IMG/VR virus record: IMGVR_UViG_3300027740_000003 | Location: 32,001-96,000 of that record | Length of the DNA stretch: 64,000 nt | Origin: a virus | Taxonomy: Duplodnaviria; Caudoviricetes | Strand: one strand, 5' to 3' | Part shown: one piece after another, positions 23,132-52,270 of the stretch | Layout of the letters: every line of letters begins with the position of its first letter | Position numbering within the stretch: the first letter of the stretch is position 1 | Position numbers and translations under genes: made by a program | The notes under the pieces: model-generated | The model's input: only the letters and a program-made list of their open reading frames with translations | Databases searched by the model: none | Told to the model about the DNA's origin: nothing

Positions 23132-24873
23132 GCCTCTTCCTTCTTAGATGCTTCAGGTTTCCCAACCACATATGTCAACCAATTCTTAGCCCTAGTAATT
23201 GCGACATACATTAAGTGTGCCTCTTCTTCATTCGCATCCCTGGGTGCATACGTGTCCACTAATACATAAACGTGAGGCCTCTCCAAACCTTTGAAACGGT
23301 GCGTGCTAGAAAGTGTAATGCATTCCTTCCCATCTTTATCTTCCTTGTTCTCCTCAGGAGAAAACACATTGCACCTATCTAGAATTTCCTGAACAGATTT
23401 GACACTATTCAAAGCCGAATCCAAATCACTAGTTAATGCAACCACAGTCTCCCATTCATCCCTTAGCCTGTCCGCAGCTACTTTATAATCACTTTCCTTC
23501 TTGTTCTGGGAATGATGCCTAAGCCACTCATCATTATAATTCAATACCTCCTGTCCAGTAAACAACCCGCAAACCTCACCCTTCTCCACCAATACATCAT
23601 GTCGCCTCTTCCAACACTTGATCCGATACGAAAGCATCCTTCCATAATCCCGGCCAATAAACTTTACTTTCCTCTGCTGCTTTGCTAGCTGAAAAAATAC
23701 CCTAACCAATGGAGCATTGGTCCTGCTAATCAATACATCACCAGCCTCAATCTTCTCAAGCAACTCTTTGCATTCACATTTATCCACAATTCCCGCTGGT
23801 GCATTGGGCCTTGCCGTAATAATTGGATTAAATTGCTGAGCTTCGTTAATAATCAGTTCATCACACCTCCAGGAACAGGAAAGAGGCAAGCTAACACAAT
23901 TGAATTGCTCAACCATTTCTGGCAAAGCATTGCTGTCTGCACAAGCAAAGCCGAAAATTGCTTGGCAAATATCACCCACGATAAAAATTCTTCCCGAATC
24001 CTTAACGGACTTTGCAACAAGCTCTCGCCTTGCTTTGCTTAGGTCTTGACATTCATCAACAAAAACCTCATCATATTGGTCCACAGCCCAATCATTCACA
24101 ATGGGCAGCCAAATCTCGTCATCGAATGTCAACGCAGCTTTAACGAAAGTCTTTCCTCCTTTGCCTTGACAAATGGTTGTTCCGGCCCTATGCTTTGTGA
24201 ACTCCATGATCTTCAAAGCATACTTGACAAATTCCTTCCTATCATAACCGGTTTCAATATTAAACCGATCCATTAGCTTAATCATTCCTTGTGCACCACT
24301 TGTCAATGTCATCTTAGCTTTGGAGATCAGGTCCATCAAAGCATCTCTGTCATCAGCTTTTTCTTTCTCGGGGCCAAGTTCATTCTCTACCAACCCTCGC
24401 ATATAAGGACCAGAAGAATCCTGAACATCGAATTGCTTTCCTGCCCAGGCTTTCTTTAAGGAACGATAGCCAAGGCCATGACAGGTTAGAACATCAACAT
24501 TATTATATCCAGCAAGCCTTTTTGCTCCTTCTTCTTTGATGGAAACATTAAAAGCCACAAAGAGAATCTTGTGGCTTGGGTTCTTTTCGGAGCACCGAAT
24601 AATACTTTCTACAATGGAGGCCGTTTTTCCCGATCCAGCTACGGCCTCAATACAACCATTTCCTGTTCCATTCTCGACAAAGTCAAAAACAGTTTGGAAT
24701 TGTTCATTCCAGCCATCCTGTGGAACATATCTTGGAAGCCTTTCTTTTGATGCCTCTGGCTTGGCCCAGGAACGGCTTTTGATTCCTCCTGCCCCCTGGG
24801 GGCCGGACTTCTTGAAAGAGCTTCCAGCGGGCGGATAAGAGGCTTTGCGGGCAGCATTAGAATAATAGGCCAT
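23128..24873 (-). CDS. UvrD/Rep-like superfamily 1 helicase
   Basis: AVAGSGKT, VDECQD, GDICQAIFGF, SWRC, STHRFKGLE, YVAITRAK. Confidence 0.92.
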   Translation of the reverse strand: MAYYSNAARKASYPPAGSSFKKSGPQGAGGIKSRSWAKPEASKERLPRYVPQDGWNEQFQTVFDFVENGTGNGCIEAVAGSGKTASIVESIIRCSEKNPSHKILFVAFNVSIKEEGAKRLAGYNNVDVLTCHGLGYRSLKKAWAGKQFDVQDSSGPYMRGLVENELGPEKEKADDRDALMDLISKAKMTLTSGAQGMIKLMDRFNIETGYDRKEFVKYALKIMEFTKHRAGTTICQGKGGKTFVKAALTFDDEIWLPIVNDWAVDQYDEVFVDECQDLSKARRELVAKSVKDSGRIFIVGDICQAIFGFACADSNALPEMVEQFNCVSLPLSCSWRCDELIINEAQQFNPIITARPNAPAGIVDKCECKELLEKIEAGDVLISRTNAPLVRVFFQLAKQQRKVKFIGRDYGRMLSYRIKCWKRRHDVLVEKGEVCGLFTGQEVLNYNDEWLRHHSQNKKESDYKVAADRLRDEWETVVALTSDLDSALNSVKSVQEILDRCNVFSPEENKEDKDGKECITLSSTHRFKGLERPHVYVLVDTYAPRDANEEEAHLMYVAITRAKNWLTYVVGKPEASKKEEA

Positions 24874-49879: not shown

Positions 49880-50113
49880 CTATACACGCCTAATATTTCT
49901 CAATTTTTCGTAAACAAGATTGCTGATCTCATTAAGTTTCTTTTCATAGGGTGCCTTAGCTTCTTCTAGCTTTGCTCTAAGAACCTCATATTCTAAATAT
50001 AGCTCTTCTGGAATTTCATGTCCTCTAGGATCCAACTGGACAGACACTGGTTTATTATAGTCATTATAATAAAAAGAAATTGATACGTTTTTCATTTTTG
50101 AATTCCTTAGCAA
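49880..50113 (-). CDS. hypothetical protein
   Basis: Tiling ORF. Confidence 0.6.
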   Translation of the reverse strand: MLRNSKMKNVSISFYYNDYNKPVSVQLDPRGHEIPEELYLEYEVLRAKLEEAKAPYEKKLNEISNLVYEKLRNIRRV

Positions 50114-50140
50114 TCAAAACACAACTCGTCCCCAGATCTA

Positions 50141-50364
50141 GGGATAAAAATAGCAGAAGGCCATTAGCCAGCTTCAACTAGGTTTCCCTATCCACCGACA
50201 CAGGCTTTATAACAATTCAATTCTAAAACAAGCATCATAGAGTTTCCTCTCAACTTATTTCCATGAACTGTTAATCGACACTTCCATACCGAGGCTTGTC
50301 GCCAAACTGTTTTTGCTGAAACCACTCAGCTTCACTTCGTAGGTTTTTCAGCTCCTACTATCCC
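50141..50364 (-). ncRNA. Candidate ~224-nt structured RNA downstream of the tRNA-Leu pair
   Basis: GGGATA/TATCCC termini; two GAAA-tetraloop hairpins; further stems; no ORF of 60 aa or more. Confidence 0.55.
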
Positions 50365-50382
50365 TTGGTTAAAAAGGATGGG

Positions 50383-50465
50383 TCCCACATATAGGACTTG
50401 AACCTATACCTAGATTACTAGAAAGGCTTCTAAAGCCTTCGCGCCTGCCATTACGCCAATGTGGG
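50383..50465 (-). tRNA. tRNA-Leu (TAG)
   Basis: CCCACAT/ATGTGGG, AAGGC-TTTAGAA-GCCTT, long variable arm, A73. Confidence 0.9.
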
Positions 50466-50481
50466 ATTATATTCTTGCTAG

Positions 50482-50566
50482 TAGCTCCTTCCCGACTTGA
50501 ACGGGAAATACCTTCCGGTAAATAGGGCTTGAACCTATCGCGTTTGCCAAATTTCGCCAAGGAGCC
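50482..50566 (-). tRNA. tRNA-Leu (CAA)
   Basis: GGCTCCT/AGGAGCT, ATAGG-TTCAAGC-CCTAT, long variable arm, A73. Confidence 0.92.
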
Positions 50567-50571
50567 AAACT

Positions 50572-50964
50572 TCATTTATTCATCTCTGTCCACTCTATAT
50601 ACGATTTCTTTACCTCCTCATCTTTGCATTCTAATTCTTTTTTAACTACTAGAAGTTGGTCAGCATAATCTGTCAGGCCTTCCACGGTAGTGCCAATCAC
50701 AGTATAATGCTCACCAGAGCTTCTGTCAACTAGAAAAACATGCCCGTCTAAAATATTAGCATAGTAGTTTTTAAAAGAATCTTTCGAAAAAGGATCAGAA
50801 GAAAAAACGCACATCCTCTCATTCTTAGTAAACCGTGGTATCTCCACGATCATCCAATGGTAATCGGAATATATTTTAATAGTTGCACCAATCTCTCCAA
50901 GAACATCACAAATTGCTTTTTGTGCCGAAAAATATTGGTCAATATTGTTGTCAAAATCAGTCAT
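50572..50964 (-). CDS. hypothetical protein, tandem paralog B
   Basis: MTDFDNNIDQYF ... ECKDEEVKKSYIEW. Confidence 0.8.
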   Translation of the reverse strand: MTDFDNNIDQYFSAQKAICDVLGEIGATIKIYSDYHWMIVEIPRFTKNERMCVFSSDPFSKDSFKNYYANILDGHVFLVDRSSGEHYTVIGTTVEGLTDYADQLLVVKKELECKDEEVKKSYIEWTEMNK

Positions 50965-51403: not shown

Positions 51404-52270
51404 CTACAGAATTATAGATCCTTCAGCGTCCCAGCGATGTCGAATTCTTCCATCAGGAAAATAAATCAAATTCCTCATCTGATCATTACTAGTAGGTTTA
51501 GGATCTAAACAATTATTTATACATACATTCTGCCCAAAAACATCATACACCCTGGCTCCGTGCGCTAGCTCCAACACAACCATACCATGGAACTCTAACC
51601 ACTTGTGAATCTCACGCAAGGCCCCACGTGATAATGTGTGCTCTTCAACCCACTTCGAAACATTAGCATTGCTTGAATTGTCTGGCTTCGATACCGGCAA
51701 TAATGTAAGCTGCTCAACATGGTTCTGTTTTGCAAAATCAATCATGCATTTGATCTGCTCCGGAGTATCAGTAAAGTCTTTGCAAAGAATACAGATAAGC
51801 CTTACACCAAAACCAATTCCGTGCAGTTTCTTAATGGTCGGAATAAGATCTGGATATTTTTTACCTCCAGTATAAATTTTACTATTGATATCTGGGGAAA
51901 TGCTAGCGATACTAATCGCTATAGTAGATAGCCCTTTGGCGTACCAGTCAACCAAAATATCATTACTAATTTTTCCTCTAGCAATGCTCAAACCATTAGT
52001 CTGAAGTTCAACAATAGGAACAGGGTATTCGTTTAGAACATCTAGGTATTTAGAAATCAGTTCTGGCCAAAGAGTAGGCTCTCCTTTACCAGTAAGCATT
52101 GCTGTGGTTGCCCCCGCTTGAACAGCTAGTTTACAAGCAATATCAAAGTTCCTCCAATTGGGTTCAATTGGCTTTACTTCTGCTTCTCCAGTCATTCTAG
52201 AGACACAAAACGGACACCTGGCATCACAAGCACCACTTCCCGTCACTATACTAAATGTTTGAATTTGCAT
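51404..52270 (-). CDS. radical SAM protein
   Basis: CDARCPFC, LTGKGEPTL, ELQTNG. Confidence 0.9.
   Translation of the reverse strand: MQIQTFSIVTGSGACDARCPFCVSRMTGEAEVKPIEPNWRNFDIACKLAVQAGATTAMLTGKGEPTLWPELISKYLDVLNEYPVPIVELQTNGLSIARGKISNDILVDWYAKGLSTIAISIASISPDINSKIYTGGKKYPDLIPTIKKLHGIGFGVRLICILCKDFTDTPEQIKCMIDFAKQNHVEQLTLLPVSKPDNSSNANVSKWVEEHTLSRGALREIHKWLEFHGMVVLELAHGARVYDVFGQNVCINNCLDPKPTSNDQMRNLIYFPDGRIRHRWDAEGSIIL

Follow-up and report, generated by a model that had tools for sequence, protein, structure and literature searches.

The 64,000-nucleotide (nt) stretch of soil-phage DNA studied here (the window) corresponds to bases 32001-96000 of a 435-kb virus record, IMGVR_UViG_3300027740_000003, that is complete by CheckV estimate. 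On its minus strand, positions 50145-50378 encode a new structured RNA, phage-specific and ~220-235 nt long, located directly behind a pair of tRNA-Leu genes. An earlier reading of the letters alone (the original prediction) had proposed an uncatalogued structured non-coding RNA attached to these tRNA genes, and our analysis bears this out: no Rfam family recognizes the stretch, and homolog collection with covariation analysis returned a 72%-identical homolog that keeps the fold with 14 compensatory pairs. We are highly confident that this is a functional structured RNA; with less assurance, we surmise that it is released from the tRNA transcript and acts in trans.

Results

The stretch is non-coding. 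As had been claimed, it harbors no open reading frame (ORF) of 60 residues or more, the longest comprising 45 residues with a GTG start, and the flagged stretch has no open frame under codes 11, 4 or 15, including when TAG is read as glutamine. Comparison with the homolog on contig L024 (see below) revealed indels of 1, 2, 1 and 2 nt, some of them inside the region of the 45-residue ORF; owing to these indels and to the lack of any ORF in common, a conserved small protein is excluded. Folding of the minus strand yielded a minimum free energy (MFE) of -70.2 kcal/mol vs. -52.9 ± 4.2 for dinucleotide shuffles (z -4.16, with none of 200 shuffles as good), compared to a z of -1.64 for the plus strand, and the L024 homolog also folded better than its shuffles (z -3.62). 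Because 17 or more pair positions have a G-U in one sequence or another and would read A-C on the opposite strand, minus is the functional strand. The stretch is single-copy, with no paralog of the whole RNA anywhere in the phage genome. A permissive scan of 49900-50700 with the 4227 models of Rfam 15 (E≤10), a set that includes tmRNA, RNase P, 6S, SRP, T-box, riboswitches, small ribozymes, ROOL, GOLLD, raiA and YrlA, found the two tRNAs only, in agreement with the original prediction, which had not recognized the RNA as tmRNA, RNase P RNA, 6S RNA or a small ribozyme; on the L024 and L032 homologs, the sole overlapping match was STnc310 (20 bits, E 7.5).

Homologs were reached by several routes. 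L024, an ENA contig found through an 81%-identical homolog of the 252-residue protein encoded near the RNA, carries an RNA ~72% identical to that of the window, directly behind a single tRNA-Leu(CAA). L032, a second contig of the same lineage with five substitutions in its RNA, came from a pattern scan of Joint Genome Institute (JGI) metagenomes, and L057, with an RNA identical to that of L024, was found via a homolog of the nearby radical SAM gene. The three RNAs (L024:183-432, L057:2045-2294 and L032:3808-4056) score 298-301 bits with our model R1, each lies 12-14 nt 3' of tRNA-Leu(CAA), and the gene order of radical SAM, small 'MxxFDxxIDQYF' protein(s), tRNA-Leu and RNA is common to the window and all three contigs. 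When public assemblies were aligned to the window, two near variants ~97% identical to its RNA emerged, one from groundwater (a run that also contains L024-like contigs) and one from landfill. Wider searches added little. Among 50,697 GenBank phage records, blastn with 'distant' settings (2 kb, the RNA alone or the L024 RNA as query) gave no match other than a single 21-nt chance match, and exact-pattern scans of IMG/VR with the two most conserved blocks gave none; the 5' conserved block had 7 matches in JGI metagenome contigs, of which only L032 was real. As protein queries, the radical SAM gene and a 130-residue neighbor retrieved nothing in IMG/VR, and R1 had no match on L025, L026, L034-L037 and L051-L056, contigs with distant homologs of the 252-residue or radical SAM proteins. 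The family is real but narrow, comprising two lineages found in the record itself, three contigs and two other assemblies.

Covariation was scored on the alignment of the window, L024 and L032 RNAs, using a favored structure of 70 pairs. In this alignment, 96.6% of cells were paired and 14 of the 70 pairs had changed on both sides yet remained paired (score 0.362), vs. 32-52% paired cells and 0-3 double-changed pairs in controls where the 3' partners were slid by 1-3 columns; no column shuffle out of 500 matched the observed pairing and double changes. RNAalifold on the window and L024 sequences predicted 67 pairs, 14 with compensatory double changes. By helix (named below), the compensatory pairs fall in H2 (2), P4 (3), the lower and upper stems of P5 (2 and 3), P6 (3) and P7 (1). 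Closer comparisons (L032 vs. L024; groundwater and landfill variants vs. the window) serve as an independent check, with all 11 substitutions in paired columns keeping the pair, including an A-U to C-G change in H1. Between the window and L024, 43 of the 125 paired columns differ (34%) vs. 17 of the 91 unpaired ones (19%), and this greater variability of the stems is the mark of an RNA that functions through its loops and junctions. Judged from these comparisons, the minus-strand fold is under selection.

Both long arms of the RNA are predicted to end in a standard kink-turn, capped by 3-4 base pairs (bp) and a GAAA loop. Kink-turn hairpin 1 (50234-50252, minus strand, as are all parts of the RNA given below), which forms the tip of arm P5 by sequence read and motif scan, consists of UGA, GAG-GAAA-CUC, the bulge UAU and GAU, the L024 counterparts being GGA, GAG-GAAA-CUC, AUU and GAA. 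Kink-turn hairpin 2 (50171-50193), found by motif scans at the tip of arm P6, consists of GGA, UAGG-GAAA-CCUA, the bulge GUU (GAU in L024) and GAA-GC, and is identical save for the bulge in all five sequences. A standard kink-turn has a 3-nt bulge followed by G.A and A.G pairs (PMC4382518), and both modules comprise a canonical stem 5' of such a bulge and then tandem G.A/A.G pairs, invariant in five of five sequences (GA 50236-50235 opposite GA 50251-50250 in kink-turn 1; GA 50175-50174 opposite GA 50192-50191 in kink-turn 2). Covarying helices continue past the kink-turns, helix 7 after the first and helix 9 after the second, each with 3 compensatory pairs, and helix 9 has an additional U-G to C-G change in the landfill variant. 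A scan for the module with a paired non-canonical stem found 3 sites in 435 kb vs. 0.2 expected per shuffled genome, and two of the three are kink-turns 1 and 2, lying 59 nt apart. The original prediction had listed the two GAAA hairpins and overlooked that they are kink-turn caps; the position that it paired A-U in the first of them (AGAG/CUCU) is A opposite A in L024, and thus the kink-turn reading fits where a 4-bp stem does not.

At the 3b.3n position, A.G is present in kink-turn 2 of all sequences and in kink-turn 1 of the L024 lineage, and kink-turn 1 of the window has U.U, a pair found in box C/D kink-turns. A.G is the best Mg2+-folding type; it predominates in SAM-I riboswitches, where no protein partner is involved, and is hardly ever found in U4 kink-turns, which depend on protein (PMC4382518). 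The 3n = G rule predicts that kink-turn 2 and the L024 kink-turn 1 would fold upon addition of Mg2+. No gene of the L7Ae family (PF01248) was found in the phage; given this and the A.G type, we favor kinks that are structural and protein-independent.

The module was also seen apart from the RNA. A third copy (GUGGA-GAGG-GAAA-CCUC-GUA-GAAGC), with compensatory changes in its capped stem and an R1 score of 19.5 bits, resides in a 355-nt ORF-free gap ~5.3 kb past the window end (L039:1300-1655, minus, equal to G000:C1:101297-101652 of the record). Taken as a whole, the gap is only marginally more stable than its shuffles (z -1.6); it could represent a second RNA with the same kink-turn module. 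In another huge phage, IMGVR_UViG_3300005253_001115 (267 kb), an intergenic element of ~110 nt (L046:9660-9778, minus) closed by CCGGG/CCCGG has the module GUGGA-GCGG-GAAA-CCGC-UGA-GAAGC and then a GUGG-GAAA-CCAC hairpin; the remainder of the RNA was not found in that record with R1. Across 185,579 species genomes, the module pattern had 47 matches, all chance- or coding-like and with a complementary stem in 3 of the 47, and a generic double-kink-turn pattern in IMG/VR (113 stretches matched) had no locus passing the stem filter among the 80 listed.

In the predicted fold, which has three GNRA loops, H2, P3, P4 and the two long arms P5 and P6 radiate from a multi-helix junction. At the 5' end, RNAalifold places a linker hairpin, P0 (50361-50378; UCCUU-loop-AGGGA, or UCUCCU/AGGAGA in L024), with 1 compensatory and 2 one-sided changes. 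Hairpin H1 (50339-50358, sequence read) pairs GUAGG with CCUAC around AGCUGAAAAA; its loop AGCUGARAAA is conserved except for A/G at one position, and its stem is GUCGG/CCGAU in the landfill variant (A-U to C-G) and has a G-C to G-U change in the L024 lineage. Hairpin H2 (50315-50330), GCUGAG/UUCAGC with an invariant UGGU loop, shows 2 compensatory and 1 one-sided changes vs. L024. It is followed by the conserved single strand J2/3 (50304-50314; AAAAACAGUUU), the same in the window and L024 with one change in L032, by the small hairpin P3 (50293-50303; GGC-loop-GCC), whose variable loop has a C to U change in both near variants, and by P4 (50275-50292; UCGGUAU-GGAA-GUGUCGA), with a GNRA loop, 3 compensatory and 2 one-sided changes. 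The long arm P5 (50210-50273) comprises a lower stem, an internal loop, an upper stem and kink-turn hairpin 1; it has 5 compensatory pairs in helices 6 and 7, and its pairs are kept through the near-variant changes G-U to A-U, U-G to C-G and U-A to U-G. P6 (50160-50205; GCC...GGC) bears kink-turn hairpin 2, with 3 compensatory pairs and the U-G to C-G change in the landfill variant. The conserved 3' tail (50145-50159; CUUC-U-G-CUAU-UUUUA, with the U tract after the CUUC and CUAU segments) is kept in the window, L024 and L032, and the landfill variant diverges past CUUCU and has its own U tract. The weak hairpin P7 (50129-50144; UCCC-loop-GGGGA, from RNAalifold) is possibly no longer part of the RNA. 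The J2/3 strand (AAAAACAGUUUGGC) has an exact 14-nt complement in a 581-residue helicase-like gene (window 24684-24697, mRNA strand); we read it as a coincidence because chance alone would give ~1 such 14-mer for the query as a whole.

For closure of the junction, the 3' tail has two pairing partners, GAAG (50335-50338), which forms the 5' strand of P1b with CUUC (50156-50159) as its proposed partner in the L024 MFE fold and is invariant without covariation, and AUAG (50358-50361), which would form P1a. On three sequences, RNAalifold picked instead a long P1 (AUAGUAGGAG/CUUCUGCUAU) that is mutually exclusive with H1. We favor H1 since the landfill variant has a double change in it; apart from this change, the closing segments are invariant, and the pairings given for them are candidates.

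The four hairpins of the original prediction are present on the minus strand where it had placed them, namely GUAGG-AGCUGAAAAA-CCUAC (50339-50358), GCUGA-GUGGUU-UCAGC (50315-50330), AGAG-GAAA-CUCU (50239-50250) and UAGG-GAAA-CCUA (50179-50190), as judged by sequence read. Its two longer-range pairings fared less well. GGGAUA (50359-50364) does complement UAUCCC (50141-50146), a pairing possible in both lineages, but this terminal helix has no comparative support: comparative folding selects P0 along with a closing helix placed closer to the core, the terminal helix competes with the covarying P0 and with a CCC/GGGG hairpin, and the landfill variant is devoid of UAUCCC. Likewise, GCUGAAA in the H1 loop (50346-50352) is the exact complement of UUUCAGC (50315-50321), and the single-sequence MFE of the window uses this pairing, but the pseudoknot or alternative fold drawn from it is unsupported, with the L024 lineage gaining a mismatch and two G-U pairs and hairpin 2 itself covarying.

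The genes surrounding the RNA are on its strand. Directly upstream are the two tRNA-Leu genes identified by ARAGORN, the one with anticodon CAA (50481-50566, minus; Rfam tRNA 33.6 bits) being the first gene of the unit, followed by that with anticodon UAG (50379-50466, minus; Rfam tRNA 56.2 bits at 50383-50465), which by sequence read has its discriminator A at 50383 and no encoded CCA. The RNA starts ~5-20 nt past tRNA-Leu(UAG), and no terminator was predicted between the two, one reported site overlapping the T arm and acceptor stem of the tRNA. A consensus scan found a promoter-like TTGACA-17-TATACT (11/12) at 50701-50729 (minus), 135 nt upstream of the first tRNA-Leu and within the 130-residue gene; at the equivalent place in L032 no such site was found. 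Further upstream of the tRNA pair are the radical SAM gene and two small genes that are paralogs, and downstream of the RNA are three small ORFs and then the 252-residue protein, which has a DnaJ-like zinc-finger motif. No terminator was predicted between the RNA and the downstream ORF of 71 residues (49880-50095, minus; ATG at 50095, Shine-Dalgarno (SD) sequence AAGGAA at 50103-50108), which has no Pfam family; by eye, a 180-residue ORF 3' of the L024 RNA is N-terminally similar to it. The distance from the RNA to the next start codon is ~50 nt in the window vs. ~190 nt in L024. In L024 and L032, a promoter-like TTGACA-16-TAAATT lies exactly in the hairpin after the RNA, at the place of P7 (L024:413-440; L032:4037-4064); the corresponding window sequence, TAGATC...TTGATT, matches poorly. 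The landfill variant has an unrelated sequence 3' of the RNA, and the start of its downstream gene is located on a separate contig, where a different sequence precedes it.

The body of the upstream tRNA-Leu differs among the window, L024 and L032, and none of these tRNAs encodes CCA. It was observed that the tRNA-Leu before the RNA has been exchanged between lineages (window 50379-50566; L024:85-170; L032:3708-3794; L057:1947-2032) and the RNA behind it is nearly unchanged: L024 and L057 each carry a single Leu(CAA) with a third type of body, not reported by the Rfam tRNA model, and the Leu(CAA) of L032 has acceptor and D arms like those of the window's Leu(UAG). The phage has two adjacent PolyA_pol/CCA-adding-like genes (L058/L059; G000:C1:332101-333329, minus). 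No RNase Z was found in the phage, the sole match with a metallo-beta-lactamase fold (L060:1297-2097, minus) belonging to the anti-Pycsar Apyc1 family (E 1e-21). ARAGORN also detected, outside the window, a tRNA with the amber-reading anticodon CUA (G000:C1:148687-148760, minus) and a tmRNA with the tag ANDNADLTAAAA (G000:C1:97812-98149, minus). The radical SAM gene (51404-52270, minus) is 63-64% identical to genes on the cellular contigs L051 and L052, where its neighbors are OmpA, Omp85 and COX1, and shares ~50% identity with many proteins from Patescibacteria and DPANN; these relatives may hint at the origin of that gene or at the phage host.

Discussion

We surmise that, as the original prediction had it, the RNA would be co-transcribed with the tRNA-Leu genes, given the same strand, the gap of ~5-20 nt and the absence of a predicted terminator. 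Its 5' end would be made by tRNA 3' maturation, with host enzymes cutting the CCA-less tRNA at its 3' end; a host enzyme is proposed because the phage encodes no RNase Z. The 3' end would fall at the conserved CUAUUUU tract. The kink-turns would fold without protein and bend the arms, with the GAAA loops docking back on the body, and the result would be a compact, stable RNA acting in trans. We lean towards this specific biogenesis and trans-acting reading and consider it fairly likely. It fits with the finding that a tRNA-Leu always adjoins the RNA although the tRNA body differs. As to its role, we can only guess at a decoy or scaffold tied to tRNA metabolism during infection.

Several points weigh against this view. 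No public RNA run is listed with the stretch, and transcript, ends and stability are all inferred; no partner protein or target has been identified. The covariation amounts to essentially one deep comparison, without R-scape-type power, because only two diverged lineages are known, and the closing helices P1a and P1b and the kink-turn cores are invariant and hence supported by conservation alone. The sole diverged relative genome found (G001; 336 kb, with an SNF2 helicase 52% identical) has no copy detectable over the whole genome by blastn, nhmmer with single sequence and profile, or R1; its tRNA-Leu(CAA)-Leu(UAG) pair is followed by a tRNA-Val and then a coding gene. In addition, a similar small gene lies 3' of the RNA in both lineages with no terminator between.

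The last point raises the question of whether the RNA is a cis-acting leader or riboswitch, with the junction as an aptamer in the 5' untranslated region of the small downstream gene (71 residues; 180 in L024) and with read-through or translation controlled by the closing helix next to the U tract or by the alternative AUAGUAGGAG/CUUCUGCUAU pairing. Such a device would be in keeping with a multi-helix junction whose junction and loop nucleotides are more conserved than its stems, two mutually exclusive pairings of the 5' segment that are both possible in the window and L024, a conserved U tract after the closing helix, and kink-turns of the ion-folding type (3n = G) typical of riboswitches (PMC4382518). 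The N-terminally similar ORFs downstream in both lineages, with no terminator predicted before them, would also fit, but synteny by itself is expected among such close relatives, and the gene has no recognizable function to sense. Moreover, no conserved terminator/antiterminator or SD-sequestering partner was found, and it is the variable distance to the start codon, the promoter-like site that stands between RNA and gene in L024 and L032, and the unrelated flank that uncouples the gene in the landfill variant that lead us to favor a stand-alone trans-acting RNA. A leader is unlikely in our estimate, but it keeps some weight because the junction is aptamer-like and similar small genes are found in both lineages.

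A different possibility is that the kink-turn hairpins form the scaffold of a ribonucleoprotein, binding two copies (or a dimer) of a host or phage kink-turn-binding protein in the manner of box C/D RNAs, the U4 5' stem-loop or OLE RNA with OapC, a protein that OLE RNA binds at a kink-turn (PMC12286853). Two kink-turns with very short hairpin caps do resemble protein-bound kink-turns and K-loops, the module is also present in a second intergenic stretch of the phage and in one other huge phage, and the U.U of the window kink-turn 1 matches that of box C/D kink-turns, whose folding requires protein (PMC4382518, PMC5689011). Yet the phage has no L7Ae-family gene that we could find, and the A.G type, present in kink-turn 2 everywhere and in kink-turn 1 of L024, folds in Mg2+ alone (PMC4382518), making this scaffold improbable in our view. 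That the stretch has no RNA function at all, being what remains of a tRNA or intron in decay, the gene of a small protein, or an attachment or recombination site acting at the DNA level, we find scarcely credible: integration and recombination are common at tRNA genes, the upstream tRNA was exchanged between lineages and a 45-residue ORF with a GTG start exists, but none of this squares with the 14 compensatory pairs, the pair-preserving micro-variants (11 of 11), the strand-specific signal from G-U pairs, the frame-breaking indels in the ORF region, or a single-copy RNA with no tRNA or intron match at E≤10.

The RNA might also bind tRNA-Leu, as a phage-encoded T-box-like device sensing, sequestering or protecting charged or uncharged tRNA-Leu. 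The UGGU loop of H2, invariant on a stem that covaries, is perfectly complementary to the ACCA 3' terminus of tRNA-Leu, with discriminator A73 in four of four upstream tRNAs, and J2/3 contains UUG, the codon read by tRNA-Leu(CAA), which precedes the RNA in every lineage. UGGU also follows the 4-nt logic of the T-box bulge (UGGN) and of the RNase P L15 loop (GGU). In this reading, the tRNA body could be clamped by the two kinked arms. As only two short complementarities noticed after the fact speak for it, we hold this to be a long shot; if true, it would be unprecedented outside cis-acting T-box leaders.

Among known RNAs, the closest by context are rnaC and rnaD (species 1 and 2) in the tRNA cluster of phage T4, stable RNAs directly behind tRNA-Arg on the same strand, with rnaD starting 1 nt after the tRNA; both are freed from the precursor transcript of the tRNAs. 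At 119 and 139 nt, they are shorter than the RNA described here, we know of no kink-turn hairpin arms in them, and T4 69800-72200 shows no similarity to R1 with filters off (best 3.5 bits, E 0.35). ROOL and GOLLD are located near phage tRNA islands, and ROOL has no known protein partner (PMC12286853). These RNAs (RF03087 and RF01998) are likewise elaborately folded phage or prophage RNAs of unknown function, but they are 2.5-4 times larger and form RNA-only cages, and neither has an Rfam match here at E≤10. The kink-turn 2 core, GGUGGA...GAUGAA, closely matches that of the SAM-I riboswitch kink-turn. The H. marismortui Kt-7 and SAM-I kink-turns share the 3-nt bulge, the G.A/A.G pairs and 3b.3n = A.G (PMC4382518), whereas here the canonical helix is 3-4 bp and GAAA-capped and the module occurs twice per RNA, a kink-turn being a motif and not a family. 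For the rest of the RNA, a SAM-I aptamer was rejected for lack of an Rfam match.

In plant tRNA-snoRNA dicistrons, MALAT1/mascRNA and the tRNA-miRNA units of murine gammaherpesvirus 68 (MHV68), the tRNA is the processing signal that frees the RNA behind it. The biogenesis proposed here would be the same, a CCA-less tRNA being the RNase Z-like type of substrate; however, those cases are eukaryotic or from an animal virus, whereas here processing is inferred in a phage. Archaeal box C/D sRNAs also have two kink-turn elements (K-turn and K-loop) in one small RNA, but a box C/D RNA was rejected, with a multi-helix junction in place of terminal box C (RUGAUGA), box D (CUGA) and guides; of the box C/D proteins, no L7Ae gene was found in the phage, and Nop5 and fibrillarin were not searched for. 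An H/ACA RNA was rejected on architecture and Rfam results. So was a T-box, since there is no RF00230 match, the kink-turns are at arm tips and not at the stem base, UGGU is in a 5' hairpin loop ahead of UUG, and the downstream gene has no synthetase or amino-acid function. Bacterial RNase P RNA was also rejected, as none of the RNase P models matched at E≤10; the short look-alikes GAGGAAA, ACAG..GGC and CCUAGAUGAA do not seem collinear with M1 RNA. The RNA is a new uncatalogued family within the known, unexplained class of phage tRNA-array RNAs, with its two kink-turn-capped arms as the distinctive feature.

The role of tRNA arrays in giant phages is debated, and T4 rnaC/rnaD, ROOL and GOLLD have been functionally unexplained for decades. 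At ~230 nt, the RNA described here, with an unusual plan that is always found behind tRNA-Leu, is compact enough for probing, crystallography or cryo-electron microscopy. If its kink-turns fold without protein, it would be a natural tertiary architecture driven by kink-turns outside ribosomes and riboswitches; if they bind protein, it would point to an unknown phage-host ribonucleoprotein. Either outcome would help explain why phages keep non-tRNA genes in their tRNA operons.

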